Positions 1 through 35,399 of a DNA stretch of 64,000 bases are shown one piece after another. The stretch spans positions 1,003 through 65,002 of the forward strand of contig CAZFHY010000012.1 in NCBI GenBank assembly GCA_964519305.1, read 5' to 3'. Both the position numbers and the translations under genes were made by a program. Every line of letters begins with the position of its first letter. Positions within the stretch are counted from its first letter, which is position 1. The DNA comes from Candidatus Undinarchaeota archaeon (lineage in GTDB: Archaea; SpSt-1190; JASMDC01). The notes beneath the pieces are model-generated. The model ran no database searches and was not told the origin of the DNA. It was given only the letters and a program-made list of their open reading frames with translations.

Positions 1-1764
1 TTCGATGCTCTCTGTCTTGTCGCCATCCATCAGATAGAGCTTCTCGGCGGCCTTCACCACCGTGGGAACGTAGTCCTTTGCCCGCGGGGTCAGGAGGATA
101 GCGGACTTCTCCAGATGGGCCGAGGCCCGCTTTGGATCTCCCTTGAGGAACTTGGCGCACTTCTGGTGCAGTTCAACGGACGTGTTGACGTTGATGCTCT
201 CGTACTCGGCAGCGCATGACTCCATGTGCTGGATGGCGCTCTGTTCGTCTCCTAGAAGGTGGTACCCTTCGGAGATAGTCTCAAGGAGGAACGGAGGGAA
301 GGTCCCGATCTCCAGCACCTTGTTCATTCGGGAGGGAAGGATGACCTCCTTATAGTATCCAAGCTCACCGGAGCGCTCCTTCCGCAACCGGAGGCAGGCG
401 CTCATCACTTGTTCCAGGTCCTGGATGCGGTCCACGGCCTCACGATTGGTAACATCGATCTGCATGCTCCGCAGAGCGTCCGATGCACCGATACGAACGT
501 CGGGGTCCGAGTACTCCAAGAGCTCGATAAGAGGTTCGACCGCTGCCTTGTCACCGATCTTACCAAGTGCCACGACCGCTTTGTGTCGGAGGTCCAGGTT
601 CGATTGCTTGAGTAGTTCTACGAGGGAGGGCACGGCCTGTTTGTCACCGATAAGCCCGAGAGCAGTGATAGTCTGCGAACGGACGCCCTCGTTCTCGTCC
701 TCGAGTGTCTTGATGAGTGGATCTGTGGCCTTGCTGTGGCCAATCTTGCCGAGCGCTTCGATTACGTTGATGCGGACCGCACCTACGGGATCCTTTAGCT
801 TCTTGATCAAGGAATCTATTGCTCGCTCGTCGCCGAGCTTCCCCAGTGCAATAGCTGCCTCTTCCCGGACCTCGCCTTCCAGGTCGAACAGGGTCTCCAT
901 CAGGGGTTCCACTGCCCGTTCATCACCGAAGTTTCCGAGCGCCTTGGCAGTGCGTGCACGCACCTCGTTATCCGCAGCGTTCAATGTCCGGATGAGCGGT
1001 TCGATAGCCCGACGGTCTCGCATATCCTCCAAGTACCCCACCGCGGTCTGTCGGACGTCCGCATCCGGATCGTCGAGGAGTTCGATGAGGGGATCAATCA
1101 CTTCAGGCACTCCCATCTTGCCCAGCGCCTCGGCCGCCTTGGCCCGCACGACAGGATCCAGGTCGTCCACAAGGAGGACTAAGGCCCCGACCGCGCGGCG
1201 GTCGCCCAAGGTCCCGATCGACTCCACGACTACGGCGCGGACTTCGGGATCCATGTCCTTGAGCAACTCAACAAGGGCAGAGAGCGAGCGGCGGTCGCCG
1301 ATCCTTCCCAAGGCCTCCGCGGACTTCGTCCGGACCTCGACGTTCTCGTCCTTGAGCAGTTCCACGAGCGGTGCCACAGCCTCGGTCCCTATGTGCGTGA
1401 GCGCCCACTTGGCGCGTCTGGAAAGGTCCTCGTCGGCATCGCAGAGGGCGTGGACGAGCGGTGATACGGCCGGTGCGCCGATCTTCGCGAGCGCCCAGGC
1501 GGAGAAGTCGCGCACCTCAGGAGATGTGTCCCGTAGAAGACGGACCAGTTGGTGTACCGCCTCGTCCATCTTGAGCACGCCCAACGCCCACGAGGAGTAC
1601 TTGCGAACGGAAGCGGAGGGATCTTTGAGAGCGCCGATGAATAGGTCCTTTAATGAAAGGTCCTCGAGGTTACCGAGGGCGATGATCGCGTGAGCACGGA
1701 CGTCCCGGTCAGGATCCCGCGCCAGCTGGAGGAGCCTCTGTTTGTGAGTATTCCCTTCTTTCAC
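1..1764 (-). CDS. HEAT-repeat (PBS-lyase-like) protein, partial; its 3' end lies beyond the window start
   Basis: Minus-strand translation gives roughly 30-aa periodic repeats of the form L..LL.D.d..VR..A..ALG.IG (e.g. LVELLKDENVEVRTKSAEALGRIGD; LQLARDPDRDVRAHAIIALGNL). It is not in the ORF track because it runs off the window edge. The 5' end is ambiguous (GTG at 1764, ATG at 1569, or further upstream) and overlaps the 5' region of the divergent ATPase gene. Confidence 0.6.
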   Translation of the reverse strand, partial: MKEGNTHKQRLLQLARDPDRDVRAHAIIALGNLEDLSLKDLFIGALKDPSASVRKYSSWALGVLKMDEAVHQLVRLLRDTSPEVRDFSAWALAKIGAPAVSPLVHALCDADEDLSRRAKWALTHIGTEAVAPLVELLKDENVEVRTKSAEALGRIGDRRSLSALVELLKDMDPEVRAVVVESIGTLGDRRAVGALVLLVDDLDPVVRAKAAEALGKMGVPEVIDPLIELLDDPDADVRQTAVGYLEDMRDRRAIEPLIRTLNAADNEVRARTAKALGNFGDERAVEPLMETLFDLEGEVREEAAIALGKLGDERAIDSLIKKLKDPVGAVRINVIEALGKIGHSKATDPLIKTLEDENEGVRSQTITALGLIGDKQAVPSLVELLKQSNLDLRHKAVVALGKIGDKAAVEPLIELLEYSDPDVRIGASDALRSMQIDVTNREAVDRIQDLEQVMSACLRLRKERSGELGYYKEVILPSRMNKVLEIGTFPPFLLETISEGYHLLGDEQSAIQHMESCAAEYESINVNTSVELHQKCAKFLKGDPKRASAHLEKSAILLTPRAKDYVPTVVKAAEKLYLMDGDKTESIE

Positions 1765-2979
1765 GATCCCAAGGATATCCCCGTTCCGGACCTGCTCCTT
1801 GAAGGGATCCTCCTTTCGGACGACAACATCGAGGAGATCGTGGTCAACTGCTCCACAGAGCCCTTGTGGATCTACCATCGCAGGTTCGGCTGGCTCAAGA
1901 CCAACATCATCATCCCCACGGAACCCCAGATCCATAACTATGCGTCCATCATCGCAAGACGGGTCGGTCGACAGATCACCACGCTCGAACCGCTCCTGGA
2001 CGCGCACCTGGTCACCGGCGACCGCGCCAACGCCACTCTGTTCCCCATATCCAGCAAGGGCAACTCGATGACCATCCGACGGTTCGCCCGGAAGCCCTGG
2101 ACCATCTCCAACTTCCTCAAGACCAGAACACTCAACTCCGAGGCGGCAGCTCTCATCTGGCTCGTGATGCAGTACGAGATGAACATGATCGTCTCGGGAG
2201 GTACGGGTTCGGGAAAGACATCGTTCCTCACGGTCTGTATGCCGTTCATCCAGCCCAACCAGCGTATTGTCTCGATCGAGGACACGCGCGAGCTCCAGCT
2301 CCCCCGTTTCCTCCACTGGGTACCAATGACCACTCGTCAGCCCAATCCCGAAGGGAAGGGTGAGATCACAATGCTCGATCTCATGATCAACAGCTTGCGT
2401 ATGCGTCCTGACCGTATCATCCTGGGTGAAACGCGTCGCCAGAAAGAGGCAGAGGTTCTCTTTGAGGCCATGCTGACGGGTCACTCTGTGTACTCCACGG
2501 TCCACGCTGATACGGCCTCCCAGACCATCAAACGTCTGGCCAATCCCCCTATCAACGTCCCCGAGTCGATGCTCGAGGCCGTCCACCTGAATGTGGTGAT
2601 GTTCCGGGACCGCCGAAAGAGCATCCGACGCTGCTTCCAGATAGCAGAGTTCCTCCCCACGAGCGAGACGGAGGGGACCGGTATGAAAGCGAACCTCCTC
2701 TACCGCTGGCGCCCGAACACGGACACAATCACTGCCCACTCCAAGTCGGTCTCGCTCTTCGACAAGCTCTCGATGCACACAGGACTTACCGAGCTGGAGA
2801 TCACCGAGCAACTCGTCACGAAGAAGAAGGTCCTTGACTGGACCCTGAAGAACAACATCTTCGAACTGGATGAGATCGGACAGATCATGGCCCTGTACTA
2901 CTCGGACCCGGACGGTGTGTTGGAGGTCGTGGAGAAGAACCAGAGCTCGCGCAAGCTCCTCGGTGTGGAGGTCAATTAG
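1690..2979 (+). CDS. Tad/type-IV-pilus family secretion ATPase (TadA/CpaF/FlaI-like, T2SSE domain)
   Basis: Walker A GGTGSGKTSFL; IILGETR Walker-B/Asp box region; a conserved N-proximal block IEEIVVN...ARRVGRQI...TIRRF typical of GspE/VirB11-family ATPases. GTG start at 1690 (the start is uncertain; an alternative GTG lies at 1744). Confidence 0.85.
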   Translation: MSTDVPVRIPRQLEEPLFVSIPFFHDPKDIPVPDLLLEGILLSDDNIEEIVVNCSTEPLWIYHRRFGWLKTNIIIPTEPQIHNYASIIARRVGRQITTLEPLLDAHLVTGDRANATLFPISSKGNSMTIRRFARKPWTISNFLKTRTLNSEAAALIWLVMQYEMNMIVSGGTGSGKTSFLTVCMPFIQPNQRIVSIEDTRELQLPRFLHWVPMTTRQPNPEGKGEITMLDLMINSLRMRPDRIILGETRRQKEAEVLFEAMLTGHSVYSTVHADTASQTIKRLANPPINVPESMLEAVHLNVVMFRDRRKSIRRCFQIAEFLPTSETEGTGMKANLLYRWRPNTDTITAHSKSVSLFDKLSMHTGLTELEITEQLVTKKKVLDWTLKNNIFELDEIGQIMALYYSDPDGVLEVVEKNQSSRKLLGVEVN

Positions 2980-3915
2980 GTGGTCACGAGTGAGAAACCA
3001 ATCGTGACCACCGAACCCGTCTTCGAGATGGAGATCACGCGCCTGCCCATCTGGCCGGTGCCCATCGACAAGGCGGCAGCGCAGTCCCACACGTTCCTCG
3101 GGTTCGCCCAGATGATCAGGCCGGGATTCCCCGAGCTGGACCTCACCCTGCGTCAGGCCAAGGTCGGTATCGACGCCGAGGTTTTCCTCTCCATCGCCTG
3201 CTACTACTCGTTCCGCATGACCATTATGTTGCTCATAGCGTTCGAGTTCTTCGCGTTCCAGACGGGCTCGGAGCAGGGTATCGTCTGGGCACCCATCATC
3301 GCAATCCTCCTCGGCTGCTTCCACGTGATGTACCAGGCCATGTATCCCAAGCTCCTGGTAATCAAGAAGGTCAAGGCCCTCGAGCGCAACCTCCTCTTCG
3401 CCCTGCGCGCCATGCTCATCCAGGTGAACTCGGGCATCTCCCTCTACCACTCCCTGGCCCTCATCGCTAGCGGCGAGTACGGGCTGGTGTCCGAGGAGTT
3501 CAACAAGGCCATCACCCGCATCAATGCCGGTATCCCCGAAGAGGAGGTGCTCATGGAGCTTGCCATGGAGAACCCATCCATGTTCTTCCGGCGTGCCATC
3601 TGGCAGATCGCCAACGCCGTCACCGCGGGCTCGGACGTGAGCCACACCCTTCGCGAGATCATCAAGACGCTTTCAAAGGAACAGGGCGTGCAGCTTCGTG
3701 CCTACGGCTCACAACTCAATCCAATGGCGCTCATGTACATGATGATCGCCGTCATCCTTCCTTCTCTCGGCGTCACGTTCATGATCGTGCTCTCGGGCCT
3801 CCCGTCGGTGAACGTGTCCGAGATCATGTTCTGGCTCCTCTATGCGGGTGTGGCGCTGTTCCAGTTCATGTTCATGGGGATGATCAAACAGAAGAGGCCC
3901 AGCCTGCTGGGGTGA
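2980..3915 (+). CDS. T2SSF-domain membrane protein (TadB/FlaJ-like platform protein)
   Basis: GTG start immediately after the ATPase stop. T2SSF-like helical cytoplasmic domain (LERNLLFALRAMLIQVNSGISLYHSLALIA...TLREIIKTL) flanked by TM segments. Confidence 0.75.
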   Translation: MVTSEKPIVTTEPVFEMEITRLPIWPVPIDKAAAQSHTFLGFAQMIRPGFPELDLTLRQAKVGIDAEVFLSIACYYSFRMTIMLLIAFEFFAFQTGSEQGIVWAPIIAILLGCFHVMYQAMYPKLLVIKKVKALERNLLFALRAMLIQVNSGISLYHSLALIASGEYGLVSEEFNKAITRINAGIPEEEVLMELAMENPSMFFRRAIWQIANAVTAGSDVSHTLREIIKTLSKEQGVQLRAYGSQLNPMALMYMMIAVILPSLGVTFMIVLSGLPSVNVSEIMFWLLYAGVALFQFMFMGMIKQKRPSLLG

Positions 3916-3916
3916 T

Positions 3917-4927
3917 ATGATGGCGTTCCGTAAAGAGTACCTGTACATCACCCTCGCCCAGCTGGTGCCCCGCGTCGTGCAGGATAGTATCGAAGAGCTC
4001 ATGCTCTTCTGTGAGATCGAAATGGACTCCAGGGTGTTCCTCGGGCTCATGCTTATCGGTGGAACACTATTCTCCCTGGCAGCAGGTATCTATGCTGTGT
4101 TCGCCTTTAAAGTAGGCATCATCTTCGGGTTCATCCCGATCGTCGCTATCGCGTTCATTCTCACGGAGAGCGGTATCTACATCGCCCTCACGCTCTCAGC
4201 AGACGCCAGTGGCCTCTATGCGGAAGAGGTCCTCCCCGACGCACTGCAGCTCATGGCCTCCAACCTCCGCGCCGGGCTCACGCCCGACCGGGCCTTGTTG
4301 GTCTCAGCCCGACCTGAGTTCGGTTCGCTCGAGCGGGCCATCCGGCGCACATCGAAGGAGGTGATCGCTGGAAAGAACCTCCCCGACGCGCTCCTCGAGC
4401 TCCCCAAGAACATCAAGTCGAAGGTCCTCATGCGCACCATCCAGCTCATTTCCCAAGGTATACGCTCGGGTGGTAAGATAGCCGACCTCCTTGAACAGAC
4501 CGCCGACGACATGCGCACCCAGAAGATCATCCAGAAGGAGGTTCGTGCGACGGTGCTCATGTATGAGATCTTCATCACACTGGCCGTAGGCTTCGGCGGC
4601 CCGCTGCTCTTCGGCGTGTCGTCCTATCTTACCACTGTGCTCACCGCGCAAACGTCGGCAGGGGGGCAAGTGCCCGACGAGGTCACCTCGAGCATGCCGA
4701 TCGCCCCCATGGGCAAGATCACCATCGACGAGAACTTCGTGGTCATGTACGCAGTTGCCTGTCTCACGCTATCCTCGGTGTTCGGCTCGCTCATCATAGG
4801 GTTGCTCAAAGAGGATAACGAGCTGGCAGGTGTTAAGTTCATCCCACCAATGCTTGTCACAGCGCTATCCCTCTTCTTCGGGGTCAGGCACTTCATATTC
4901 ACGTACTTCGGCGATATGCTGATGTGA
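3917..4927 (+). CDS. T2SSF-domain membrane protein (TadC/FlaJ-like platform protein)
   Basis: Second T2SSF domain (LQLMASNLRAGLTPDRALLVSARPEFGSLERAIRR...IADLLEQTADDMR) with N- and C-terminal TM segments. Tightly coupled to the preceding gene. Confidence 0.75.
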   Translation: MMAFRKEYLYITLAQLVPRVVQDSIEELMLFCEIEMDSRVFLGLMLIGGTLFSLAAGIYAVFAFKVGIIFGFIPIVAIAFILTESGIYIALTLSADASGLYAEEVLPDALQLMASNLRAGLTPDRALLVSARPEFGSLERAIRRTSKEVIAGKNLPDALLELPKNIKSKVLMRTIQLISQGIRSGGKIADLLEQTADDMRTQKIIQKEVRATVLMYEIFITLAVGFGGPLLFGVSSYLTTVLTAQTSAGGQVPDEVTSSMPIAPMGKITIDENFVVMYAVACLTLSSVFGSLIIGLLKEDNELAGVKFIPPMLVTALSLFFGVRHFIFTYFGDMLM

Positions 4928-6308
4928 CGCTGGCAGGCTGTGGTCCCTCCCCGGCGTATGCAGCGATGGCGCATATGGCAACAGTGAGGCTCAGATAGTT
5001 CATGTGGAGCGAGCGCATGAATATTGACGCCACCAGCAGGGTGGCAGCGAATCCTGTGCACATGGCTCGGAATGTGCCCTTCCTGGCCTGACGCCTAAGT
5101 AAAGTAATTGCGACTGGAAGAGTGACAGCGATGTGGAACAGCCACATGGGAAAACCGCCCCTCGAGGACGCGAGCCCTAGATGGAGCAGGATGGTGCCGA
5201 TGCCGTAGGAGTAGTAGCCCCGCAGTGGGTACTCCTCGGCCGAGCCCCCCATTGTGTAGAGCACGGTGTCGTCGATGAACGACCACGGGTCCAAGAGGAA
5301 GAAGGGTGCATTGATAATGAGTACGGTAACAGCAAGGTAGACCATCGCCCTGCTACTCAAGACCTTCCTCACCCTGTTCTTGTCAAGCTCGCCCGGGCCG
5401 TAACCGGAGGCGGCGAGGGCGAAGAAGGGAAAGTAGATCCAGGCCAGCTGCTTGCTCGACAACGCGAGCCCCGCGGCGATACCGGCCGGAGCGTACCTCC
5501 GCTCGCGGAGGAGCACCAAGCTCATCACTAGCCATGAGAGCACGAACACGTCGTTGTATCCCGATAACATCCAGGGGAGCATGAGCGGGTTGAGGAGGAC
5601 GAGGGCCTCCAATGATCGCTTATTCGGTCCGTCCTGCGCGAGCCGTGGAAGGTAGAGCGCGAGGAGACAGTACGAGATAAGGAGGACTATGCGATTGTCG
5701 AAGAATCCCACGGCGGCCTCCATGAGGATGGCGAAGGGCACGGCGAAGACGACGTGGAAAGGCATGTAGGCATAGTGTGCCAGCGCTGGATTGCGTGCGT
5801 AGCCTAGTTTGTGGAAGACCCCATCGTACCTGCCTGAGTCGACCACGGTGCCCCCGTAGTCCTCAGTGTAGGGATTTCGGCCCTGGAGCACCAGTGTCAC
5901 CACGTACTCCTCCTGGAGCAGTCCGTCGAACTGGTTCTTGTCGTCGCCCGAGCGGTGACGGGCGTACACGTGGAAGAGCAACGGGATAACGACCACCAAC
6001 AGGACGATAGTCCCGAAGCACGTCCTCCTAATGATCCGTTGCCAGCGGACGGACCACGCGCTCCCAAGGACGTCCACCATGAGGTAGATCACAGCGAGCC
6101 CGAGCGAAATGGACCCGATGAGCCACTTGAGAGGTTGCCCGAAGAAAATCCCTGCCACCGGCGCTCCGACCAATCCCAGGAGATTGTTCATGGTAGGGAC
6201 GTTAGCGGCCATAAGGAGCGTGAGGACCAATAGAAGGATGCTATCAGGTCCTATAAGCCCATCCCCGTCATCCGCAGGAGCACCACCGTCCGTTTTACGT
6301 TCTTCCAC
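4899..6308 (-). CDS. polytopic integral membrane protein (more than 10 TM), possibly a GT-C-like glycosyltransferase or a DUF2029-like protein
   Basis: 469-aa ORF that is hydrophobic throughout, with loops containing acidic and aromatic residues. No catalytic motif was recognised with confidence. Confidence 0.45.
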   Translation of the reverse strand: MEERKTDGGAPADDGDGLIGPDSILLLVLTLLMAANVPTMNNLLGLVGAPVAGIFFGQPLKWLIGSISLGLAVIYLMVDVLGSAWSVRWQRIIRRTCFGTIVLLVVVIPLLFHVYARHRSGDDKNQFDGLLQEEYVVTLVLQGRNPYTEDYGGTVVDSGRYDGVFHKLGYARNPALAHYAYMPFHVVFAVPFAILMEAAVGFFDNRIVLLISYCLLALYLPRLAQDGPNKRSLEALVLLNPLMLPWMLSGYNDVFVLSWLVMSLVLLRERRYAPAGIAAGLALSSKQLAWIYFPFFALAASGYGPGELDKNRVRKVLSSRAMVYLAVTVLIINAPFFLLDPWSFIDDTVLYTMGGSAEEYPLRGYYSYGIGTILLHLGLASSRGGFPMWLFHIAVTLPVAITLLRRQARKGTFRAMCTGFAATLLVASIFMRSLHMNYLSLTVAICAIAAYAGEGPQPASVTSAYRRST

Positions 6309-6483
6309 AGTGGCCGACCTGTGCGGATGAGCATGTTAGACGTTAAATGCTTGATGGCCCCGACGCTGCCGGTGCGTGTGCAACGGAAACGTTTAAAACG
6401 TGCAGCGGGCAGGTCAGGGAGGCCGAGAACCGTGGTGCATCGGCGCCATCCGTACCGGCAAGAACTGACATAATGGTGATAGC

Positions 6484-6702
6484 ATGGAAGACGAGGTCAA
6501 GAAGATCATCGAGACAGAGATCGCCCCCGCCCTCAAGATGGACGGCGGCAACATCGAGCTCATCGGCGTCGAGGACGGCGTCGTCAAGGTCAAGCTACAG
6601 GGCGCCTGCGCGGGTTGCCCCATGAGCCAGATGACCCTGATCAACTTCGTAGAGAAGACCCTCAAGCAGAAGGTCCCCGGGGTCAAGCGCGTCGAGGGCT
6701 GA
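6484..6702 (+). CDS. NifU-like (Nfu C-terminal domain) Fe-S cluster scaffold protein
   Basis: 72 aa, with the diagnostic CAGCPMSQMTL motif and overall Nfu fold signature (GG.IEL..VEDGVVKVKLQGAC). Confidence 0.85.
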   Translation: MEDEVKKIIETEIAPALKMDGGNIELIGVEDGVVKVKLQGACAGCPMSQMTLINFVEKTLKQKVPGVKRVEG

Positions 6703-6865
6703 GGGAACCAGGACACGACCACGGCCGATCGTCGTATCGTCATCAGCGGCGGTCTAATGGTGGAATACTGTACCTCCACTGAGATTGATCGATGCGGTGG
6801 CGCATATCGTGATCCACATATTACACGGTAGACACGGAACAACATTGAAGAAAGGTGGAACGAAA

Positions 6866-7747
6866 ATGATCCTGAACACGGACCGACTGCTGGCCCTGCT
6901 CGCATGCCTCCTGCTCCTCGCCGGTTGCACTGGTGGTGAAACACCCGCGGAGGACCCACGCCTGAAGGCCAATCCCGTCGGGGCGGACGGCCTCATAGTC
7001 AGGACCACTGAAGTGCCGGTCGGCAGCACACATCACTTCCTGTTCAGAGGGAACACGGCCGCCGTGCTCATCAACGTGAACGGTGTGTTCCGGGCGTACA
7101 TCAACAACTGTGACCACGAGGGAGGGTTCGTAGCACTGGAGAAGGAAAGCCTGGTCTGCCAGTGGCACGACAGCAGGTTCGATCCTGACACGGGAGCGCT
7201 CCAGCAGGGACCGGCCACAGGACCTTTGAGCACCATCCCCGTCACCGTAAAGGACGGTGGTGTGTACCTCACCGAGGCGTTGAAGGCAGAGGCCACGGTC
7301 ATCGCTACAGAGATCCCGCCCACACCCACCGGGGCGCCTGTCGCACCCACTGAGCCACCGATCGTGCCCACAGACCAACCGGCGACACCAACCAATGTTC
7401 CGGAGCCAACGCCGGCCCCCACGGCGGAACCCACTCCGGACGCGGTCACGGCAGCAAGCCCACAGATCATCGTCAGGACCACCGATCTCCCGCCGGGCGC
7501 TACAATCGAGTTCGATTACAACGGTCGCGATGCGATCATCGTCAACTTCAACGGGATCTATCGAGCGTACATCAACAAATGCAATCACTCCGATGGGCCT
7601 AACGAGCTTAGGGATACCGCTATCGTGTGCAAGTGGCATGGCTCCCAGTTCGATCCCGATACGGGCGCCCTTGTGCGGGGACCTGCGACGGCTCCCCTCG
7701 AGCAGATCAAGCTCACCATCATAGGTGACAAGATCTACGCTGCATAG
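6866..7747 (+). CDS. secreted lipoprotein with two tandem Rieske [2Fe-2S] domains separated by a Pro/Thr-rich linker
   Basis: Internal ATG gives MILNTDRLLALLACLLLLAGCTGG (signal peptide plus lipobox-like Cys). Two CxH...CxxH boxes: CDHEGG...CQWHDSRFDPDTGAL and CNHSDG...CKWHGSQFDPDTGAL. The linker PTPTGAPVAPTEPPIVPTDQPATPT is typical of archaeal surface tethers. Confidence 0.7.
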   Translation: MILNTDRLLALLACLLLLAGCTGGETPAEDPRLKANPVGADGLIVRTTEVPVGSTHHFLFRGNTAAVLINVNGVFRAYINNCDHEGGFVALEKESLVCQWHDSRFDPDTGALQQGPATGPLSTIPVTVKDGGVYLTEALKAEATVIATEIPPTPTGAPVAPTEPPIVPTDQPATPTNVPEPTPAPTAEPTPDAVTAASPQIIVRTTDLPPGATIEFDYNGRDAIIVNFNGIYRAYINKCNHSDGPNELRDTAIVCKWHGSQFDPDTGALVRGPATAPLEQIKLTIIGDKIYAA

Positions 7748-7756
7748 GATCGTGGA

Positions 7757-9502
7757 GTGCCCATCATGGCTGATCCTTTCGGAGCGTTTCCGTCGTTCGT
7801 GTTAGGACTGGGCTCTGCCTTCATGTACGGGCTCTCCCATTCCCTTGGTGCCTGCATCTATTCCTGTCTACCTGTGTACATGCCCATCATCGTGGGGTAC
7901 GGCGATGATCCGAAAAAGGGATTCAGGCTCTCTCTGGGATTCGCTGCCGGGAGGTTCACGGGCTACTTCCTCCTCGGCATCGCAGCCGCTTTCCTCGGTG
8001 CGGCCTTCATCGACTTCTTTTCCACGACATTCCCCCATATCGGGACCGCTGTTCTCGCATTATTCGGACTTGTCACGCTCTTCTACGGTACCATCATGCT
8101 ATCCAGGATCGACCTACCTACTCTCTCAGGGCACTACTGCAAGACCTTTCGTGACAGCACACAGGGATATGACAACCCCTACATCGCAGCCTACCTCCTC
8201 GGCCTCACGTCCACGGTCACGCCCTGCGTACCCATATTCACGTTCCTCCTCCTCCCCTTTGCGCTCGGACGTGTTTGGGAGACCGTACCGGTGACCATCG
8301 CCTTCGGTCTCGGTGCCAACATCCCGTTCGTGTTCATCGGAGTGGCCCTGGCATTTGGAGTGCAGAACGTCAAGCAACGGTTCGACACCTGGCGCCCACG
8401 ACTCGAGCTGTTCAGCGGACTAACACTCATCGTGTTCGGTGCGATCTACATCCTTTGGGCCCTAGGTCCGACCATTCTCGGGTGGCAGGTGACGTCCTTC
8501 ACGATCCCGGACATCCGTGATATTGCAGCTCTGGCGATGTACATCCCACCGACCGTGGTCGAGGGACAATCGCTCTCCCCCTGCCTGCGCGTCGGTTCTG
8601 TGCTGATCCCCGGGAGCGAACCGTACGTGGGGCGGCCGTTCAATGTGGACGTCATCATGACCAACATCTGTGATAGGTCGGTAGAGGCCAGTCTGGTCCC
8701 GGCACTGCCTCCCGGCGTCCACACGGATACACCCATCCCGCTCGTGGCCAACGTGGAGCCCGGTCGGAGCGCGTTGCTCCGGCTCCCCCTTTGGACCGAC
8801 ATAGGGTGGGGCTCCATCATCGATATCGGTGTGGTCCTGGCCGCTGGCGACAGCGCAGGCAGACTACTTCGGCTCGAGCTTCCTGTCGAACTGCGCAATC
8901 CGTTCCTTGAAGTGTCATTCTTCGCTATCACGACCATACTCGTGCTCGCGATGCTGGTCTGGCGCTCACGCAAGGATGGTGAGAACAGCATGCTCCCGCT
9001 CGTCCTGACCGCCGTGGGCATGATCATCGTCGGTATGGCCATTCTCTCCCTGGTAAAAGGTCCGGTCCTCGGGAACAGTGGGTTCTACAATCTTGAGCTC
9101 CTCATGGTCGGGACCATCATCGTGTTCTGGTCCGTGGATATTACCAACCTCTTCAGTGAGCACCCGGACCTGTTCCTCCTCGCCTCGCTGTTCTTCGTTC
9201 GCTTCTACCTGTTCGAACCCGCCTATGGTTTCGGGACCGGGATGAGCTTGTTGACGATCACGACCCGTACCTATGTAACGGACCTTGCCGTAGCTCTCGT
9301 GTCAGTCATCCTTCCGCCAGTGTTCCACGTGAACGCTCATGCACTGCCTTACGGCGTTGCCCCGCTCATTGGTGGGACCGCTTATCTCGCCTGGTGGCTC
9401 ATTCTGTTCAAGGCCATCAGCAGGACCACCAGAACGAGCGCCACGAACGCAGAGGAGCTCATTAGCGCTCCCGGGGCCACGGGTGACGCGGGCGCGGTCT
9501 GA
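7757..9502 (+). CDS. CcdA/DsbD-like thiol-disulfide transporter domain fused to an extracytoplasmic domain and additional TM segments
   Basis: The N-terminal roughly 230 aa show six TM segments with Cys in TM1 (GACIYSCLP) and TM4 (TPCVPIF), matching the DsbD/CcdA SPC.P pattern. This is followed by a roughly 140-aa non-TM domain and 5 or more further TM helices. Confidence 0.5.
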   Translation: MPIMADPFGAFPSFVLGLGSAFMYGLSHSLGACIYSCLPVYMPIIVGYGDDPKKGFRLSLGFAAGRFTGYFLLGIAAAFLGAAFIDFFSTTFPHIGTAVLALFGLVTLFYGTIMLSRIDLPTLSGHYCKTFRDSTQGYDNPYIAAYLLGLTSTVTPCVPIFTFLLLPFALGRVWETVPVTIAFGLGANIPFVFIGVALAFGVQNVKQRFDTWRPRLELFSGLTLIVFGAIYILWALGPTILGWQVTSFTIPDIRDIAALAMYIPPTVVEGQSLSPCLRVGSVLIPGSEPYVGRPFNVDVIMTNICDRSVEASLVPALPPGVHTDTPIPLVANVEPGRSALLRLPLWTDIGWGSIIDIGVVLAAGDSAGRLLRLELPVELRNPFLEVSFFAITTILVLAMLVWRSRKDGENSMLPLVLTAVGMIIVGMAILSLVKGPVLGNSGFYNLELLMVGTIIVFWSVDITNLFSEHPDLFLLASLFFVRFYLFEPAYGFGTGMSLLTITTRTYVTDLAVALVSVILPPVFHVNAHALPYGVAPLIGGTAYLAWWLILFKAISRTTRTSATNAEELISAPGATGDAGAV

Positions 9503-10794
9503 TCGGCACGGACGGCAGCTGCAGGGACCGGACCTTCACCGGACCTGGTGCGCCATGCCACGATCGTTCCATCTTCGAGCCCGGTAAGTAGCTCGACCAT
9601 ACCGTCGCCGTCGAGGTCTGTGAGTACGAGGCTCGTGGAGAGCGTGTGATCGAGACGATCAGGACCGCCGTCCTTACCGATCAGCGACAGACCTCCGAGA
9701 ACGGGTACGAGGACCTCGTCGTCCTGGTCCCCGACAACGTCCGCGCTGACAGGGCCGCCCAGGACCGCAGCACCCAGAGGGACGGACCGTACGACGGCCC
9801 CCGTGCGGTCCAGCAAAACGAGCGTTGTTGCAGAGACCGCGGCAATACGCTCCCCACCATCGAGAGCGACAGGGCCGTGGTCGATATGGCCATCGGTGGG
9901 CGTACTCCATAGAACCTCACCAGCCCCGTCCAGCGCATGGACCATGCCTGCCTGGTCCCCTACGATTATCTCCTGTAGACTATCACCGTCGAGGTCGAGC
10001 AACAGGGGGGCGCCGGTGATCCACTCGCCGAGGGCCCGGCTCCAGCGGAGTGTACCATCGCCGTCCAGGCAGTAGACGTTGCCGTCCATCGAGCCGAACA
10101 CCAGCTCGCCCGCACCATCACCGTCCACGTCGTCCACGGCAGGGAGGGAGAGGATGTCGTCCCCGGCCTGGAACGCCCATCCGAGGGATCCGTCCACGCC
10201 GGTCCTGACGAGCAGCCCGCCATCGTAAACCGCAAAGAGCTCCGCCCGGCCATCACCGTCCAGGTCCACCTCTGCAGGGATGACTGATCCGGAGGAGAAT
10301 GGGATCAGGTTGGTGACGTTGAGATAGCTCGATCCCATGGCCAGGAGGGTCCTGTTCCCGGTCCCGTCGGTCCTCACGAGGGCAAGTGTCCCGTCCCGCG
10401 TGCCCACGACGATCACCGGTGCGTCCTCTCCTTCGAATACGGCCGCGGTCACCGCGACGGCCCCACTATCCTCCAGGGAAAGGTTCGCCAGGATCGTACC
10501 CGTGGTCCCCGAGAGCACGAGGAGGTGCTCACCGCGCGTCAAGGCCACAACGTCGACGTGCCCATCAGCGTCCAGGTCCGCAAGAGCAGGAAGTGCGTTC
10601 ACCTTCTCGCCCAAGGGGGTGCGCCACATGCTGTCGAGGTCCGGACCGGCGGACACGAGCGTAACGAGGAGGATGACGACCGTCGCGAAGAGGTAGCGCG
10701 TCACGGCACTGCACAGGGCGCTACCGTTTAAATCGGTTGCGCACACGGCGCCAGCAGCGCACATAAAAAGGTTCGGTGCGATGCTATGACGCAT
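9382..10794 (-). CDS. FG-GAP-repeat beta-propeller surface protein (signal peptide, C-terminal TM anchor)
   Basis: Repeated DxDGDG Ca-binding-like motifs (DLDGDGRAELF, DVDGDGAGELVFGS, DLDGDSLQEIIVGD, DLDGDGMVELLTG). N-terminal hydrophobic segment and C-terminal TM (FVALVLVVLLMAL). The start was taken at the internal MRHS; the first 32 codons of the listed ORF are Arg/Ser-rich. Confidence 0.6.
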   Translation of the reverse strand: MRHSIAPNLFMCAAGAVCATDLNGSALCSAVTRYLFATVVILLVTLVSAGPDLDSMWRTPLGEKVNALPALADLDADGHVDVVALTRGEHLLVLSGTTGTILANLSLEDSGAVAVTAAVFEGEDAPVIVVGTRDGTLALVRTDGTGNRTLLAMGSSYLNVTNLIPFSSGSVIPAEVDLDGDGRAELFAVYDGGLLVRTGVDGSLGWAFQAGDDILSLPAVDDVDGDGAGELVFGSMDGNVYCLDGDGTLRWSRALGEWITGAPLLLDLDGDSLQEIIVGDQAGMVHALDGAGEVLWSTPTDGHIDHGPVALDGGERIAAVSATTLVLLDRTGAVVRSVPLGAAVLGGPVSADVVGDQDDEVLVPVLGGLSLIGKDGGPDRLDHTLSTSLVLTDLDGDGMVELLTGLEDGTIVAWRTRSGEGPVPAAAVRADQTAPASPVAPGALMSSSAFVALVLVVLLMALNRMSHQAR

Positions 10795-11803
10795 GGCGCG
10801 AACCACCGTCCTCCCCCCCGGGAAGCTCGATCCCCGGCGTCTGCCCGCCCTAGTGTTCGGCGGACTGACCGAGGGCGAGGACGTCGTCATAGGACCGTCC
10901 CTGGGGGAGGACGCGGCAGCTATGCGCCTTGGCGAGGGTTATCTCGTGGCCGCATCCGATCCGATAACAGGGGCAGAAGGGCCTATCGGTCGGCTGCTGG
11001 TCCATGTCAATGCCAACGATGTTGCCACAATGGGCGCTCGACCGCAATGGTTCCTCCCCGTCGTGCTCCTTCCCGAGGGTGCCTCGGAGGACGACCTGGC
11101 ATCCATCATGGACCAGATGTCGCAAGCTGCAAAGGAGGTGGGCGCCGTGATCGTCGGCGGTCATACAGAGGTCACCCCGGGTCTGGACAGACCACTGGTG
11201 AGCGGGTGCATGCTCGGCACGACCGACAGCCTGGTATCGTCCGCAGGTATACGGGCGGGTGACGCACTCGTGCTCACAAAGGGGGCTGCCATAGAGGGCA
11301 GCTGCATCCTGGCCACCGACCGGGCCGCCGAGGTCGAGACGGCCGTGGGTCGTGAGCTGGCAGAGGAGGCGCGGAGGTACACTGACCTGATCTCCATCGT
11401 CCCGGAGGCGCAGGTCGCCGCGAAGGAAAAGTGCACCGCCATGCACGACGTCACGGAGGGTGGTGTGCTAGGTGCGCTCCACGAGCTGTGCTCGGCCGGC
11501 GGTGTCGGGTTCAGGATCGAAGTATCCCGCATCCTGGTCTCGGACGCGACCCGTGCGATCTGCGACCACTACAGCATCGATCCTCTAAAGACCATCTCGT
11601 CGGGTTCGCTCCTCGTGTCCGCATCCCCCGAGCGTGCCGAGACCATCGTTTCCGGCATCAGGGCCCTGGGCGTATGGGCCGACATCATCGGGTATGCCGT
11701 CGACCTAGACGAGGGGACGACCATGATAGATGAGAAAGGGACGGCCCATGAGGCACCATTCCCACCACAGGACCATCTCTGGACGGTCCTCGACGGAGGC
11801 TGA
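10793..11803 (+). CDS. PurM/AIR-synthase-related protein (HypE/ThiL-like fold)
   Basis: N-domain GEDAAAMRL..GYLVAASDPITG and DVATMGARP, and C-domain GGHTEV, are characteristic of the PurM superfamily. A TATA-like cacataaaaagg lies about 28 nt upstream. Confidence 0.7.
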   Translation: MARTTVLPPGKLDPRRLPALVFGGLTEGEDVVIGPSLGEDAAAMRLGEGYLVAASDPITGAEGPIGRLLVHVNANDVATMGARPQWFLPVVLLPEGASEDDLASIMDQMSQAAKEVGAVIVGGHTEVTPGLDRPLVSGCMLGTTDSLVSSAGIRAGDALVLTKGAAIEGSCILATDRAAEVETAVGRELAEEARRYTDLISIVPEAQVAAKEKCTAMHDVTEGGVLGALHELCSAGGVGFRIEVSRILVSDATRAICDHYSIDPLKTISSGSLLVSASPERAETIVSGIRALGVWADIIGYAVDLDEGTTMIDEKGTAHEAPFPPQDHLWTVLDGG

Positions 11804-17599: not shown

Positions 17600-17839
17600 T
17601 TGTATCCGTTACATTCTCCGATGGAGAAGCTCGAGCTCATCGCGTTCCTCAACGAGGCATTCATGGTCGAGGAGGTGGAGGTGGGCGTCAAGATAGGCGC
17701 TCTAATCGAATCGGTCCTCTGCGCGCCTATAGATAATGGCTCCAAGAAGGAGATGGTGATCAGGCTCAAAACCCTTATGAGCGAGAGCCAGTACCACTCA
17801 CGCGCGATCTCACAGCTCATCAAGCACGAGGTGGGCTGA
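17600..17839 (+). CDS. small alpha-helical protein, partner A of paralogous cassette 1
   Basis: 79 aa. It is a paralogue of 19308..19532 (shared pattern L.FLNEA.-VEE-E..VK...LIE.V...PI.....KEM..RL.TL..E...HS...S). Its stop overlaps the start of the next gene (ATGA). Confidence 0.5.
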   Translation: MYPLHSPMEKLELIAFLNEAFMVEEVEVGVKIGALIESVLCAPIDNGSKKEMVIRLKTLMSESQYHSRAISQLIKHEVG

Positions 17840-18579
17840 TGGGAGATGCAACAGACGCGCTGGTCGCCCGGTTCAAGGAGATCCGCGAACTGGAACAGAC
17901 GGCGTATGACTTCTACACGTCCCACATCGACCAGATGGACGATCCTAAGATGCGCGCTGTGGTCGAGGCCATCGCTGAAGAGGAGGCCCGGCACGTTAAG
18001 ATCGCCAACGAGCTCATCGCTCTGGCTATCGCCGCGTCAGAGACGGGTGTATCCTCCTACGATGAGGGGGGCTCGGAGGATATCGGCGATGCCCTCAGGG
18101 GGGCGAAGAGCCCGTTCGCTCTCATAGCCCATGGCGAACTGAGTTCTTACTACCGGGCGACATCGAGCATCATCGAGTCGTCCATGAGGATGGGGCGGAA
18201 GGTGCTCTACCTCTCGCTCAACAAGTCCGCGGACCGCATCGAGACAGCATTACGGGACGTAGGGACGCTCATCGGCGACGTTACGTTCATGGATACATCG
18301 ACTACCAAGGACGGACGTCCCCTGGATACTAAAGACCTCGTCGGTCTCTCCATCGAGGTCGTCAAGGCCCTTGAGGACCACAACGTTGTCATTGTCGACG
18401 CGCTGTCCACTCTCTCGATCTATCACCCACTGAACGACATCCGTCGGTTCGCCCACAACCTCATCACTGTGATCAAGGACCGTGAGGCTGATATTGCGTT
18501 CCTCGACCTCGAGCCCGAGGGGAAGCTAAGTCAGGATGCGACGCTCGCCTCGCTCATGGACGTCGTAGTGAATGTGTAG
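17839..18579 (+). CDS. two-domain protein: N-terminal helical domain with E..H motif + C-terminal degenerate RecA/KaiC-like domain lacking Walker A (partner B of cassette 1)
   Basis: N-terminus ELEQTAYDFYTSHIDQMDDPKMRAVVEAIAEEEARH. The C-terminus shows beta-strand/helix alternation reminiscent of KaiC/RadA-like domains (KVLYLSLNK...VVIVDALSTLSIYH...DIAFLDLEP) but has no GxxxxGK[ST]. It is a paralogue of 19532..20281. Confidence 0.55.
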   Translation: MGDATDALVARFKEIRELEQTAYDFYTSHIDQMDDPKMRAVVEAIAEEEARHVKIANELIALAIAASETGVSSYDEGGSEDIGDALRGAKSPFALIAHGELSSYYRATSSIIESSMRMGRKVLYLSLNKSADRIETALRDVGTLIGDVTFMDTSTTKDGRPLDTKDLVGLSIEVVKALEDHNVVIVDALSTLSIYHPLNDIRRFAHNLITVIKDREADIAFLDLEPEGKLSQDATLASLMDVVVNV

Positions 18580-19307: not shown

Positions 19308-19532
19308 ATGGCTACGGGCGATAAAGAACTCGCTATGTTCCTCAACGAGGCCCTCCTCGTGGAGGACCTGGAGGCGGCCGTCAAGGTCAGCAGCCTCATC
19401 GAGCGAGTCACGCTATCGCCCATAGAGGACGAGTTGAAGATGGAGATGCTCACCCGGCTCAACACCCTCCTGCGCGAGACTCATGCCCACTCTTTGGTAT
19501 TCTCCAAGGCCCTGAAGGAGGTGCTGAGCTGA
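19308..19532 (+). CDS. small alpha-helical protein, partner A of paralogous cassette 2
   Basis: 74 aa, paralogue of 17600..17839. Its stop overlaps the next start. Confidence 0.5.
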   Translation: MATGDKELAMFLNEALLVEDLEAAVKVSSLIERVTLSPIEDELKMEMLTRLNTLLRETHAHSLVFSKALKEVLS

Positions 19533-20281
19533 TGGCGGACGACCTTCGTGACCACCTTATCAAAGAGTTCACCGCGCTCAAGGACCTCGAGCGCCAGGCC
19601 CACGACTACTACACCGACCACCTCGACCTGATCAAGGACAAGAAGCTCAGAGAGGTCGTGTCCAATATCGCCGATGTAGAGCTGCAGCACGAGTCCATCG
19701 CCGGCGAGCTCATCAAGCTGGCCGAGTCGCTCCCCTCGGGCGAGGCCAAGGTGGAGATCGAGGGCGCGGGCGAGGCCATGTCCGCCCTTGAGGAGGCCAC
19801 CGAGGACCTTGACAGCCCGATGACGCTCCTCGTCCACACGAGCCTCGAGGACTATCCCCGGACCTGTCAGGCCCTCATCACTTATTTCAAGAAGCAGGGC
19901 AGGCCCATCCGCTACGTGTCGGTGAACAAACCTGCGTCCAAACTCAAGCGCATCCTCAAGAAGCGCGGGGCCAAGGTCGACGACGTATCGTTCATAGACC
20001 CGGCCACATCTGGTGGAATCATGCTGGACCCCAAGAACCTCACCACGCTGTCCGTGCTCTTCACACGCAACTCCGAGAAGGACATGGTGGTCATCGTCGA
20101 CTCGCTCTCGGTGCTGTCGGTGTACCACTCCAAGGACATCCTCCAGCGGTTCGTCCACTCCACGACCATGGGCTCGAAAAGGAAGGGCGTCGACCTAGTG
20201 TACATAACCATGGACGCGGAATCGGACATCGGTAGCGATCCGAGCTTCGAGGCGTTCTTCGACGAGGTCGCGAAGGTCTAA
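19532..20281 (+). CDS. two-domain protein, partner B of cassette 2 (helical E..H domain + degenerate KaiC/RecA-like domain)
   Basis: Paralogue of 17839..18579, with the same architecture: LERQAHDYYTDHLDLIKDKKLREVVSNIADVELQHE; ...IRYVSVNKP...VVIVDSLSVLSVYH...DLVYITMDAES. Confidence 0.55.
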   Translation: MADDLRDHLIKEFTALKDLERQAHDYYTDHLDLIKDKKLREVVSNIADVELQHESIAGELIKLAESLPSGEAKVEIEGAGEAMSALEEATEDLDSPMTLLVHTSLEDYPRTCQALITYFKKQGRPIRYVSVNKPASKLKRILKKRGAKVDDVSFIDPATSGGIMLDPKNLTTLSVLFTRNSEKDMVVIVDSLSVLSVYHSKDILQRFVHSTTMGSKRKGVDLVYITMDAESDIGSDPSFEAFFDEVAKV

Positions 20282-24547: not shown

Positions 24548-27500
24548 GTGGGACCGCTCCAAGGAGCATGCCATCGCCGACCTGTGGAGCGACGAGGGCG
24601 TCAACGACTTCCGGCCGACCATCATCTGACCGGACCGCAAGGACCTAACGTTCTACCCCGCCAGCAGCTGCCAGCACCTCTCGGTGGGCTCGAGCAGCTT
24701 GGCCGTACCGTGCTCGACCTCGACCACATAGCCCAGCCTGATGAGCTCGCGGATACGCTTGCGGGCGGTGGGCTTGCTAACGCACAGGTCGATCCCGACG
24801 AGGAGTACGACCTCACCGATGAGGATAAATGGATCCTCGAGCGGCTCGACGACATCGTCGACATCTGCCGGGCGAGGTTCCACGACTTCGATCTCAGTGG
24901 GCCCGCGTCCACCATCCACACGTTTGTGTGGAACGACCTGGTCGATACCTACTTGGAGAGCGAGCTGGGCCGCGCGTCCAACGAGTCGAAGACCTTCTCC
25001 GAAAGTGAGGCTCGGGGTGCCCGGTACACGTTCCACAAGGTCCTGAAGACCATTCTCAAGCTCCTCGCTCCAATGACACCGTACATAACCGACTACATCT
25101 GGCGGGAGTTGTACAGTGAAAAGAGCATCCACATCCAGCCCCTGCCCTGGAGGACCGAGGTCCCCGAGTGGGAACTGCCGGAGGTCACGCCCATTTACGA
25201 TGTGGTCACTCCGGTCGTGCCCAAGAGGGTGGAACCGCCCAAACCGGTCATCAAGCAAGCTCCACCACCCGTGGTCACCGCCGCGCCCGGCGGACGATAC
25301 TGGGTGTTCAAGCTCCCCGTAGTATGGGGCAAGGAGCTCACCCTCGAGGACTACCTCAAGGCGATCCGCAAAGGCAAGTGGTTCGGACAGACCAAGCGAG
25401 ACGTCCAGGGCGACCGCTGCCCCAAGGTGGGCGACGTGGTCATCATTCGACAGAACGTCGAACAAGCTGGCTCCGAGAAGGACGGACATATGCACGTCCT
25501 CGGCACCGGTCTCGTCGACCGAGTCATCGAGGAGCGGCCCGGCGACTGGGACACCAATGACGACAAGGACGCTGTACGCTGGTTCAGCGTCGAGGACTTC
25601 AGGGAGATACCCGATGGTAGAGCGATCTCACAGGTAGACCTGCCAATGGTCCCCCGTATACTCGAACCCATCACGGCAGAGACTTGGGCCGGTATCAGAA
25701 CTCAGATCATTGCAGGACCGGCACCGGAGCGCTACTGGGTCTTCAAACTACCCGTCGTGTGGGGCAAGGAGCTCACCCTCGAGGACTACCTCAAGGCGAT
25801 CCGCAACGGCAGGTGGTTCGGACAGACAGCTCGCGACGTCCAGGGTGACCGCACGCCCCGTGTGGGCGAGGGCATCATCATCCGAGAGAACGTACAGCAG
25901 GCCGGGTCAGAGAAGGACGGACACATGCACGTCATCGGTACCGGTGTCGTCGGTCGTGTGATAGAGAAGCGTCCGAAAGACTGGAACACCAACGACGACA
26001 AGGACGCTGTACGCTGGTTCAGCGTGAACGAGTTCAAGGAGATCGAGGGTGGACGCAGTGTCTCACAGGTGGACCTGCCAATGGTCCCCCGTATCCTGGA
26101 GCCTCTGACGTTCGACGCGTTCGCTGGTATCAAGGCTCAGGTCGCAGCAGCACCACCCCCGGAGAAGTACTGGGTGTTCAAGCTACCCATAGTGTGGGGC
26201 AAGGAGTTCACGCTCGAGGACGATCTAAAGGCCCTGCGCAAGGGCAAGTGGTTCGGACAGACAGCGCGAGATATCCAGGGCGACCGCGTACCGCGCAAAG
26301 GTGAAGGCATCATCATCCGGGAGAACGTACAGCAGGCCGGGTCAGAGAAGGACGGACACATGCACGTCATCGGCACCGGCATAGTCGGACGTATCACCGA
26401 GGAGCGGCCCGACAACTGGGACACGAACGACGACAAGGATGCTGTACGCTGGTTCAGCGTGGACAAGTTCAAGGAGATCGAGGGCGGACGCAGTGTCTCA
26501 CAGGTGGACCTGCCAATGGTCCCCCGGATCCTGGAGCCTCTCACGTTCGACGCGTTCGCAGGCATCAAGGCACAAGTAGCCGCTGCACCGCCACCGGAGA
26601 AGTACTGGGTGTTCAAGCTCCCGATCGTGTGGGGCAAGGAGTTCACGCTCGAGGACGATCTAAAGGCCCTGCGCAAGGGCAAGTGGTTCGGACAGACAGC
26701 GCGGGACATACAGGGCGACCGTAATCCCTGTGTGGGCGAAGGCATCATCATCCGCGAGAACGTACAGCAGGCCGGGTCAGAGAAGGACGGCCACATGCAC
26801 GTCATCGGCACCGGCATAGTCGGACGTATCACTGATAAGCGGCCCGACAACTGGGACACGAACGACGACAAGGACGCTGTACGCTGGTTCAGCGTGAAGG
26901 AGTTCAAGGAGATCGAAGGTGGCAGGAGCGTGTCACAGGTCGACTTCCCCATGGTCCCCCGGATCCTGGAGCCGCTCACATTCGACGCTTTCGAAGGCAT
27001 CAAGGCGCAGGTCGCTGCAAAACCGCCGCCGGAGAAGTACTGGGTGTTCAAGCTCCCGATCGTGTGGGGTAAGGAGTTCACCCTCGAGGACAACCTCAAG
27101 GCCCTGCGCAAGGGCAAGTGGTTCGGACAGACAGCTCGCGACCTGCAGGGCGACCGCAATCCCTGTGTGGGCGAAGGCATCATCATCCGGGAGAACGTAC
27201 AGCAGGCCGGATCCGAGAAGGATGGCCATATGCACGTCATCGGGACCGGTATCGTCGGCCGTATCACCGAGGAGCGGCCCGACAACTGGGACACGAACGA
27301 CGACAAGGACGCTGTGCGCTGGTTCAGCGTGAAGGAGTTCAAGGAGATCGAAGGTGGCAGGAGCGTGTCACAGGTCGACTTCCCCATGGTGCCCCGGATC
27401 CTGGAGCCTCTCACGTTCGACGCGTTCGCAGGTATCAAGGCACAAGTAGCCGCAGCACCACCACCCCCGCCACCACTGGACTTCGAGCGGTACTGGCTGT

Positions 27501-34109: not shown

Positions 34110-34150
34110 GCACAGTAGCGGACTGCGCCCACGTCATTCGTTCCGGGCGT

Positions 34151-35285: not shown

Positions 35286-35399
35286 GTTATATCACTCGTA
35301 AGCGACTGTGGAGTGGATAGCTCTTTTAAGGGTTTCGGCTCGGGCGGGCCCCGAGGGAAGATACATAAAGATTTGCCCACTCGAAAGTCAAGCCTTCAT

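Follow-up and report, generated by a model that had tools for sequence, protein, structure and literature searches.

A type IV pilus locus of the DPANN family, probably damaged by a rearrangement, in a Candidatus Undinarchaeota archaeon

Contig CAZFHY010000012.1 of a Candidatus Undinarchaeota archaeon (assembly GCA_964519305.1) was analyzed over 64,000 nucleotides (nt), from position 1,003 to position 65,002; this whole stretch is referred to as the window below. At its beginning lie a HEAT-repeat gene, a gene for a secretion ATPase and the genes for two membrane proteins, F1 and F2 (Table 1). A sequence-only reading had described the ATPase, F1 and F2 as a bacterial-style Tad module with an ATPase of TadA size. 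Our analysis indicates that the locus is probably a damaged member of a known family of type IV pilus (T4P) loci of DPANN archaea, in which the ATPase has been truncated and the pilin genes have been lost by rearrangement. The succession of a T2SSE ATPase and two membrane proteins with a single T2SSF domain each was confirmed well beyond chance by matches to the Pfam families PF00437 and PF00482 (cutoffs of 24.9 and 25.2 bits, respectively) and by the hydrophobic segments found in both F1 and F2.

Two sister lineages of the window, represented by contigs L090 (51.6 kb, 82% nucleotide identity to the window) and L094 (12.7 kb, 85%), provide the central evidence. Their blastn colinearity with the window begins at window position 1806, corresponding to position 10348 of L090, position 3196 of L094 and codon 116/117 of a 506-codon ATPase gene, and continues for 9.4-11.2 kb to the end of the compared sequence. 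The same breakpoint is displayed in a three-way alignment of the window, L090 and L094. The colinear block comprises the ATPase core, F1, F2, a GT-C fold glycosyltransferase gene, NifU, Rieske, DsbD and a beta-propeller gene, and in L090 it runs on through AIRS to eRF1. The ATPases of these two contigs, P0122 and P0127, fall into the same cluster of at least 90% identity as the window ATPase and have 506 residues; other close relatives have ~500. The core of the window ATPase shares 96.7% amino acid identity with P0127.

Within the ATPase open reading frame (ORF) of the window, homology starts at residue 40 (nt 1806/1807), and tblastn homology to the relatives starts at nt 1810. When aligned with its relatives, the window ATPase lacks ~115 conserved N-terminal residues, while its own first ~39 residues match nothing. 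An AlphaFold model of the 429-residue ORF, which was based on a shallow alignment of 12 sequences, was poor overall (mean predicted local distance difference test score, pLDDT, of 60) and was used for residues 1-40 only, shows these as unstructured, with a pLDDT of 25-38. Gene callers disagree on the start of the ATPase and predict lengths of 429, 411 or 371 residues. An upstream extension of the ORF was ruled out by in-frame stops at ~1650-1660, and homology to the N-terminus was found in no frame. By these alignments, the 429-residue ORF consists of 39 fortuitous codons joined to residues 117-506 of a 506-residue gene. Its TadA size is accordingly an artefact of truncation, because the gene that has 506 codons in the sisters has lost codons 1-116 here.

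In the sister operons, which are encoded entirely on the plus strand, the genes upstream of the ATPase sit exactly where the window has the HEAT gene. They encode an FG-GAP protein of more than 2128 residues, a pilin-like protein of 168 residues, an 835-residue protein with a pilin signal peptide (FRGQAALEFIMSYGW) followed by FG-GAP repeats, a pilin of 156-162 residues (GRGQVAFEFLTTYGW) and a protein of 171-172 residues that abuts the ATPase start. Pilins with class III signal peptides are present in the sister loci L090, L094 and L101 as well as in the more distant relatives L087-L089. The earlier proposal that pilin genes might be found beyond the HEAT gene is at odds with this arrangement, since in the sisters the pilins occupy the place of the HEAT gene. 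The protein abutting the ATPase start (L087:8692-10008, L090:9484-9999 and L094:2329-2847; 171-438 residues) may be an uncharacterized cytoplasmic partner of the ATPase. Its 171-172-residue form matches no Pfam family and has the look of a winged-helix protein by eye; in L087, the C-terminus shows a sub-threshold HVO_A0114/TrmB winged-helix match. Between the sisters (L090:6378-9446, L094:1-2299 and L101), the pilin is 52%, the 835-residue FG-GAP protein ~40% and the small upstream protein 80% identical. Thus, ATPases that are ~93% identical between the sisters stand beside fast-diverging pilin and adhesin genes (40-52% amino acid identity).

Two further observations concern the sister lineages themselves. 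A sister lineage of L090, seen on two contigs of 27.4 and 42.9 kb, has an otherwise identical 506-residue ATPase that is split into ORFs of 74 and 420 residues by an insertion of 1 nt at ~codon 55 (L103:5742-7263; ATGATCAATCACC vs ATGATC-ATCACC). The ATPase N-terminus is thus disrupted a second time, and independently, within Undinarchaeales, although the insertion may be an assembly error instead of a real variant. Moreover, identity among the three lineages forms a mosaic over the block 1806-11243: at window 6600-7484 (the Rieske gene), L094 and L090 are 100% identical and the window is 74-80% identical to both, whereas over 8385-9284 its identity is 92-93% with L094 and 73-80% with L090. 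Because of this mosaic, recent recombination between Undinarchaeales lineages is suggested.

The HEAT gene lies on the opposite strand, divergent from the ATPase, and therefore outside the co-directional operon. In contig L001, where the gene is complete, it encodes 836 residues (from ATG 1569) or 901 residues (from GTG 1764); gene calls give 836, 901 and 939 residues, and 836-901 residues across L001-L005. The 31-residue HEAT periodicity is in frame up to the junction at 1805, with VR anchors at residues 5, 35, 66 and 97 from the junction. As the repeat register continues right up to the junction, the 5' end of the HEAT gene has probably been cut as well. A HEAT-like gene within 10 kb of the module was found in none of 80 related loci, which are the 80 best-matching ATPase loci of a genome collection that contains neither the window lineage nor its sisters, and no HEAT orthologue was found in the sister loci or in the 90% cluster. 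To all appearances in these comparisons, the adjacency of the HEAT gene is a rearrangement scar. A head-to-head junction of two 5'-truncated genes is expected from a deletion between divergent genes or from an inversion with breakpoints in both.

We searched for the lost genes to distinguish between deletion and relocation. A crude scan for class III signal peptides and a motif-based scan for prepilin peptidases, both over all 64 kb, detected neither, which extends the earlier observation that no such gene lies downstream of F2. A tblastn search of the window with the upstream proteins of the relatives found nothing. In a collection of 5.8 billion proteins, the N-terminus of the sister ATPase was found only in a 74-residue fragment of the L090 lineage, and the small upstream protein formed three clusters (L094-type, L090-type and P0168), none of which contains the window lineage. 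P0168 was obtained in the studies that also yielded the window lineage; its contig is 94% identical to L090 at the DNA level and intact across the breakpoint. The sole contigs of the same studies with an intact junction, L099 and L100, match the L090 lineage at 94% identity and the window at only ~92%. A scan of JGI metagenomes for the lost part returned only relatives with 38-42% identity. Because a copy of the lost part was not found for the window lineage, a deletion is favored, and a deletion between two divergently oriented genes is the most likely event.

The intact part of the locus has many relatives among DPANN archaea. The best homologues of the ATPase are 51-67% identical (60-67% for the next relatives after the exact protein), have ~500 residues and come nearly all from this group, with metagenome-assembled genomes (MAGs) labeled Diapherotrites, Woese-, Micr-, Aenigmat-, Nano-, Iain-, Alti- and Nanohal-archaeota. 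In the set of 80 loci (51-64% identity, the top match being 64% identical), the labels are archaeal and overwhelmingly DPANN, with one bacterial MAG label, which leaves little of the bacterial style ascribed to what is a 5'-truncated archaeal gene. Orthologues of F1 and then F2 follow the ATPase in 66 of these loci. The arrangement ATPase-F1-F2 is a conserved, DPANN-wide module that is already in the literature: conserved loci with CpaF and TadC have been described across cluster 2 DPANN as well as Undinarchaeota (Hamm et al. 2024, PMC11291902; see also Makarova et al. 2019, PMC6393860), and pili are encoded in all Undinarchaeota MAGs (PMC7414124). The split platform, which had been considered unusual for archaea, is the norm of the DPANN family and already known; it also occurs in clade 1 and in many clade 2 archaeal loci, which have two tadC genes (Makarova 2016, PMC4858521).

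On the long contigs of the relatives L087-L089, a larger co-directional operon extends upstream of the ATPase. It encodes small pilin-like proteins with class III (KGQ/RGQ) signal peptides, such as MFDKKGQAALEYLMTYGW, a giant VWA/LamG protein and two further proteins, the last of which has a C-terminal winged-helix match, demonstrated for L087 only. The window locus thus belongs to the same protein family, with the same order ATPase-F1-F2, as DPANN T4P loci whose members in sisters and relatives adjoin pilin-like and giant adhesin-like genes. What sets it apart is the absence of residues 1-116 from the ATPase and of the genes for pilins, adhesins and the small upstream protein, with a HEAT gene standing at the break. 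As a separate observation, the window contains two paralogous ORFs of ~247 residues, at 17839-18579 (+) and 19532-20281 (+), which match the DUF7504 proteins of the relatives in tblastn; one of them has weak, sub-threshold Pfam matches to DUF7504 and KaiC. A DUF7504 protein and a KaiC-like ATPase are also encoded at a distance of a few kb from the pilus module in the relatives L088 and L089; an association of KaiC-family ATPases with archaeal T4P is known.

We propose the following scenario for the window locus. Its genes encode the assembly core of a DPANN type IV pilus-like system, made up of a secretion ATPase that would form hexamers and of two polytopic platform proteins of half size. A single rearrangement, with its scar at the breakpoint in Table 1, eliminated all that lay upstream of ATPase codon 117 and left the rest joined head-to-head to the HEAT-repeat gene. 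As the cognate pilins would have been lost in this event along with the promoter of the operon and the N-terminal domain of the ATPase, the module probably no longer assembles its own pilus. Either the loss would be very recent, or an ATPase of VirB11 size and the platform would still work with pilins encoded elsewhere. As to the lost domain, alignments of the full-length sister ATPase begin at residue 98 with afGspE, at residue 97 with FlaI and at residue 84 with CpaF, and the lost part includes a helix, RTYLVGRLIQDMLGLGKIEI, that is common to afGspE (residues 118-137), FlaI (residues 112-132) and CpaF.

The state of the remaining genes bears on the age of the damage. The ATPase core, F1 and F2 contain no stops and no frameshifts. 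Pairwise ratios of nonsynonymous to synonymous substitution rates (dN/dS) against L094 are 0.045 for the ATPase, 0.077 for F1 and 0.091 for F2. When changes on the window branch are polarized by the third lineage, nonsynonymous and synonymous changes number 3 and 42 in the ATPase, 5 and 26 in F1, and 9 and 34 in F2, giving a total of 17/102, compared with 16/52 on the L094 branch. The three genes also form the best-conserved stretch of the colinear block, with 88-95% nucleotide identity vs 65-86% in most flanking stretches. Nothing in the three genes points to decay: the truncation may be far more recent than the branch, or selection may still act on them. The contigs of the lineage, at 99.98% identity, are too alike for the event to be dated.

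Some of these observations weigh against the reading of a damaged locus. The absence of the lost part is judged from metagenome assemblies, in which all contigs of the lineage end ~60 nt past the HEAT gene, and a relocated copy could lie on an unassembled or unbinned piece. The cut in the HEAT gene is deduced solely from the repeat register at the junction. Finally, the intact frames and the lack of an excess of amino acid changes are unlike what is expected of an old pseudogene, and for the module to be a dead remnant, the event would have to be recent.

It is possible, if on balance rather doubtful, that the truncated module is functional, with a new start at GTG 1690 or later and a promoter on the HEAT side, and that it works with pilins encoded elsewhere or in DNA uptake or secretion. 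The purifying selection on the window branch would agree with such a role, as would the catalytic motifs of the ATPase, all of which are intact (Walker A GGTGSGKTS, Asp box IEDTRE, Walker B RPDRIILGE and His box TGHSVYSTVHA). The retained core matches the extent of a complete VirB11 protein (query residues 39-286 vs residues 37-287 of 330 in 1g6o), and because it covers this full extent, folding and hexamer formation of the truncated ATPase are plausible. In archaea, modules of ATPase and tadC genes often lie at a distance from the pilin loci, and sets of pilins can be shared by them (PMC4858521), and two T4P loci have been reported in Undinarchaeota (PMC11291902). In addition, the truncated allele has been seen in many samples, and the exact window ATPase is present on 17 contigs. 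The sole candidate expression signals of the truncated gene are the AT-rich octamer TTTAATGA and a GAGGG at 1675-1679, 11 nt upstream of GTG 1690; that these serve as TATA-like box and ribosome-binding site, respectively, is speculative.

Against a functional module stand the loss of the operon promoter and of the translationally coupled upstream gene, the loss of the helix that is conserved from CpaF to FlaI, and the failure to find a pilin or prepilin peptidase gene in 64 kb. The signal of selection, moreover, may predate a recent truncation. The analogous CpaF delta1-146 of Caulobacter gave no pilus function: pilus-dependent phage infection was abolished, while the purified protein was still hexameric (PMC11300603). 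Expression of CpaF delta1-146 was undetected in vivo, however, and the authors urge caution (PMC11300603). We consider it unlikely that the truncated ATPase is a working, naturally minimized motor of VirB11 size that has been kept by selection together with F1 and F2 after the loss of the pilin and adhesin genes. If this were true, the core would have a role without the N-terminal domain or filament genes of its own, for example in DNA uptake or with pilins of a second locus, and the insertion in L103, with its 420-residue ORF, would fit a recurrent, tolerated remodeling of the ATPase N-terminus.

Returning to the damaged DPANN locus, we compared its ATPase with those of the Tad, archaellum and Archaeoglobus systems in an unrooted four-point test on fragments derived from the PDB (256 shared core columns, 200 bootstraps). 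Identity of the ATPase family to CpaF is 40%, and to both afGspE and FlaI it is 39%. Between afGspE and FlaI, identity reaches 46%, and these two form a pair that excludes the window family in 200/200 bootstraps. By these identities, the ATPase appears equidistant from CpaF, FlaI and afGspE. Among solved structures, afGspE of Archaeoglobus fulgidus (2oap) is the best match, at 218-228 bits and with an alignment to the C-terminus; the match of 218 bits spans query residues 41-413, and those of FlaI and CpaF reach 166 and 151 bits. Indeed, the C-terminal ~130 residues of the ATPase align with archaeal afGspE and not with CpaF. The ATPase shares the N2 domain, the catalytic domain and the archaeal C-terminal helices with afGspE and with Sulfolobus FlaI (4ii7), and it differs from them in an identity of only 39%, in standing apart from the group that they form, and in missing the FlaI equivalog threshold.

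An archaellum, the system that the sequence-only reading had set against a Tad-like origin, was ruled out on several grounds. The ATPase scores 256 bits against the FlaI equivalog model of NCBIfam, for which the cutoff is 550, and no archaellin, FlaH/FlaJ or other fla/arl genes are found among the annotated neighboring ORFs; the pairing of afGspE with FlaI points in the same direction.

The resemblance to bacterial Tad systems lies in the gene order (ATPase, platform 1, platform 2), in the single T2SSF domain of each platform protein, and in the P-loop SGGTGSGKT and the Walker B-region PN-EG-G/LRMRP, which CpaF and the window ATPase have in common. Against TIGR03819, consulted for a TadA/CpaF type of ATPase, the score is 175 bits (cutoff 373 bits). 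In contrast, no Flp pilin, TadV peptidase, secretin RcpA/CpaC or TadZ/CpaE is encoded in the window or in the sister loci, whereas Flp pilin, TadV, secretin and TadZ/CpaE are all present in a reference Rhizobium Tad locus (L104), and the ATPase's C-terminal domain is of the archaeal (afGspE/FlaI) type. We compared the platform proteins in hhalign with TadB and TadC profiles that contain only 3-4 sequences each. F1 scores 57 against TadB and 60 against TadC, and F2 scores 94 and 89, respectively, compared with 109 between TadB and TadC and 148 between F1 and F2 (99.3% probability). F1 and F2 are closer to each other than to TadB or TadC, and a shared fission event is therefore not supported; judged by the profile comparison, F2 is a distant paralogue of F1. 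The likeness of the split platform to Tad and Epd systems consequently stands as far as the architecture of two genes with one T2SSF domain each is concerned (Denise et al. 2019, PMC6668835), and fails for a one-to-one correspondence of F1 and F2 with TadB and TadC.

With the Epd pilus of Methanococcus maripaludis and Epd-like systems, the locus has in common an ATPase with two contiguous single-T2SSF platform genes, an archaeal host and a probable role in adhesion. Clade 1, as defined by Makarova (2016, PMC4858521), is confined to methanococci, methanobacteria, Methanopyrus and thermococci and has pilins of ~70 residues and EppA. The pilins of the sister loci, by comparison, have 156-168 residues, no EppA-like gene was seen, and the window contains no peptidase motif. 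We judge it very unlikely that the window holds an intact module of Tad or Epd type, with an ATPase that is natively of TadA size, a functionally associated HEAT gene, and pilin and peptidase genes beyond the HEAT gene. The two single-T2SSF platform genes after the ATPase and an ATPase core as near to CpaF as to FlaI and afGspE, with motifs shared with CpaF, would be in keeping with it, but the sisters have a 506-residue ATPase with pilins directly upstream and without a HEAT gene, homology breaks off at nt 1806, a HEAT gene is near none of the 80 related loci, F1 and F2 do not correspond one-to-one to TadB and TadC, and the contigs stop ~60 nt past the HEAT gene.

That the junction of the HEAT and ATPase genes is a chimeric assembly artefact and the true genome has an intact operon is scarcely credible: the contigs of the lineage all break at one place past the HEAT gene, which hints at a nearby repeat or structural polymorphism, but the same 200 nt of junction sequence are identical in six contigs (L001-L006) that represent different samples in ENA and Logan assemblies, JGI and NCBI gene calls likewise cross the junction, and the intact-junction contigs L099 and L100 are closer to the L090 lineage than to the window.

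Table 1. Coordinates of the features at the truncated pilus locus (positions in the window).
Feature	Position	Strand	Details
HEAT/PBS-lyase-type repeat gene	1-1805	-	HEAT_2, E=1.2e-130; 3' part lies beyond the window start
AT-rich octamer TTTAATGA	1649-1656	.	no other AT-rich octamer in 1500-1810; lies 34 nt upstream of GTG 1690
Secretion ATPase ORF	1690-2979	+	429 residues, GTG start; PF00437 T2SSE, E=2.6e-36, 125.5 bits
ATPase N-terminal extension, 39 codons	1690-1806	+	antisense to the HEAT frame; no homology to relatives
Rearrangement breakpoint	1803-1806	.	right side colinear with sisters; left side unrelated HEAT-gene DNA
ATPase conserved core	1807-2979	+	N2-like, RecA-like catalytic and archaeal C-terminal helical domains; sister residues 117-506
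Platform protein F1	2980-3915	+	311 residues; one T2SSF domain, PF00482, E=1.9e-15, 57.4 bits; 4 hydrophobic segments
Platform protein F2	3917-4927	+	336 residues; one T2SSF domain, PF00482, E=5.3e-16, 59.2 bits; 4-5 hydrophobic segments
GT-C fold glycosyltransferase (GT87/MptA_B-like)	4899-6308	-	convergent with F2, overlaps its last 29 nt

The gene that follows F2 had been proposed to be an associated glycosyltransferase. It is indeed of the GT-C type, with a GT87 match of 34 bits in a profile scan (cutoff 25 bits) and an MptA_B match in precomputed annotations. As a neighbor of the module, however, it is conserved in three Undinarchaeales lineages only, with synteny in L090 and L094, and no GT-C homologue was found near the module in the 80 other loci; in the relative L088, F2 is followed by an unrelated PMT_2 GT-C protein. 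A pilus-associated role is not supported, as a recurrent association was not found outside Undinarchaeales. Further along, in the protein encoded at window 6785-7747 (+), which is secreted or lipoprotein-like, a Pro/Thr-rich linker joins two Rieske [2Fe-2S] domains; NifU and a DsbD-like membrane protein are encoded next to it.

On the other side of the locus, the ENA contigs L001, L002 and L004 begin at one point (CGTATCCCTAGAATTTTACAGG...), ~60 nt past the HEAT stop and ~1003 nt upstream of window position 1, and for the Logan contigs L003 and L005 the start is shifted inward by ~110 nt. Immediately beyond these contig starts, there is probably a repeat or structural polymorphism. The window also encodes eRF1, GluRS, TyrRS and a DnaG-type primase. 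The clusters of at least 90% identity to which its GluRS and TyrRS belong include proteins named Candidatus Undinarchaeales, in line with a DPANN host. The guanine-plus-cytosine (G+C) content of the host is about 60% (window mean about 0.61), with a dip to 0.54 at window 34001-36000, around the sole tRNA gene, tRNA-Arg(GCG) at 35399-35477. At window 24548-27901 (+), an ORF of 1117 residues has an unusual architecture: an N-terminal anticodon-binding domain of class I aminoacyl-tRNA synthetases (PF08264, residues 93-201) is followed by at least six tandem repeats of ~140 residues (RYWVFKLPVVWGKE...DGHMHV.GTG...WFSV) without a good Pfam match.

For annotation, the locus is a case for caution, as the start codon of the ATPase ORF lies in antisense DNA of a neighboring gene, and size and adjacency alone would mislead. 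It also appears to represent a natural deletion in which an archaeal T4P ATPase has lost its N-terminal domain along with the pilins, in a module whose remaining genes bear the signature of purifying selection; if the truncated ATPase is expressed, it would bear on the purpose of this domain. In the sister loci, a conserved motor and platform (88-95% nucleotide identity) beside fast-diverging pilins and adhesins (40-52% amino acid identity) is the pattern expected of structures that make contact with a host.

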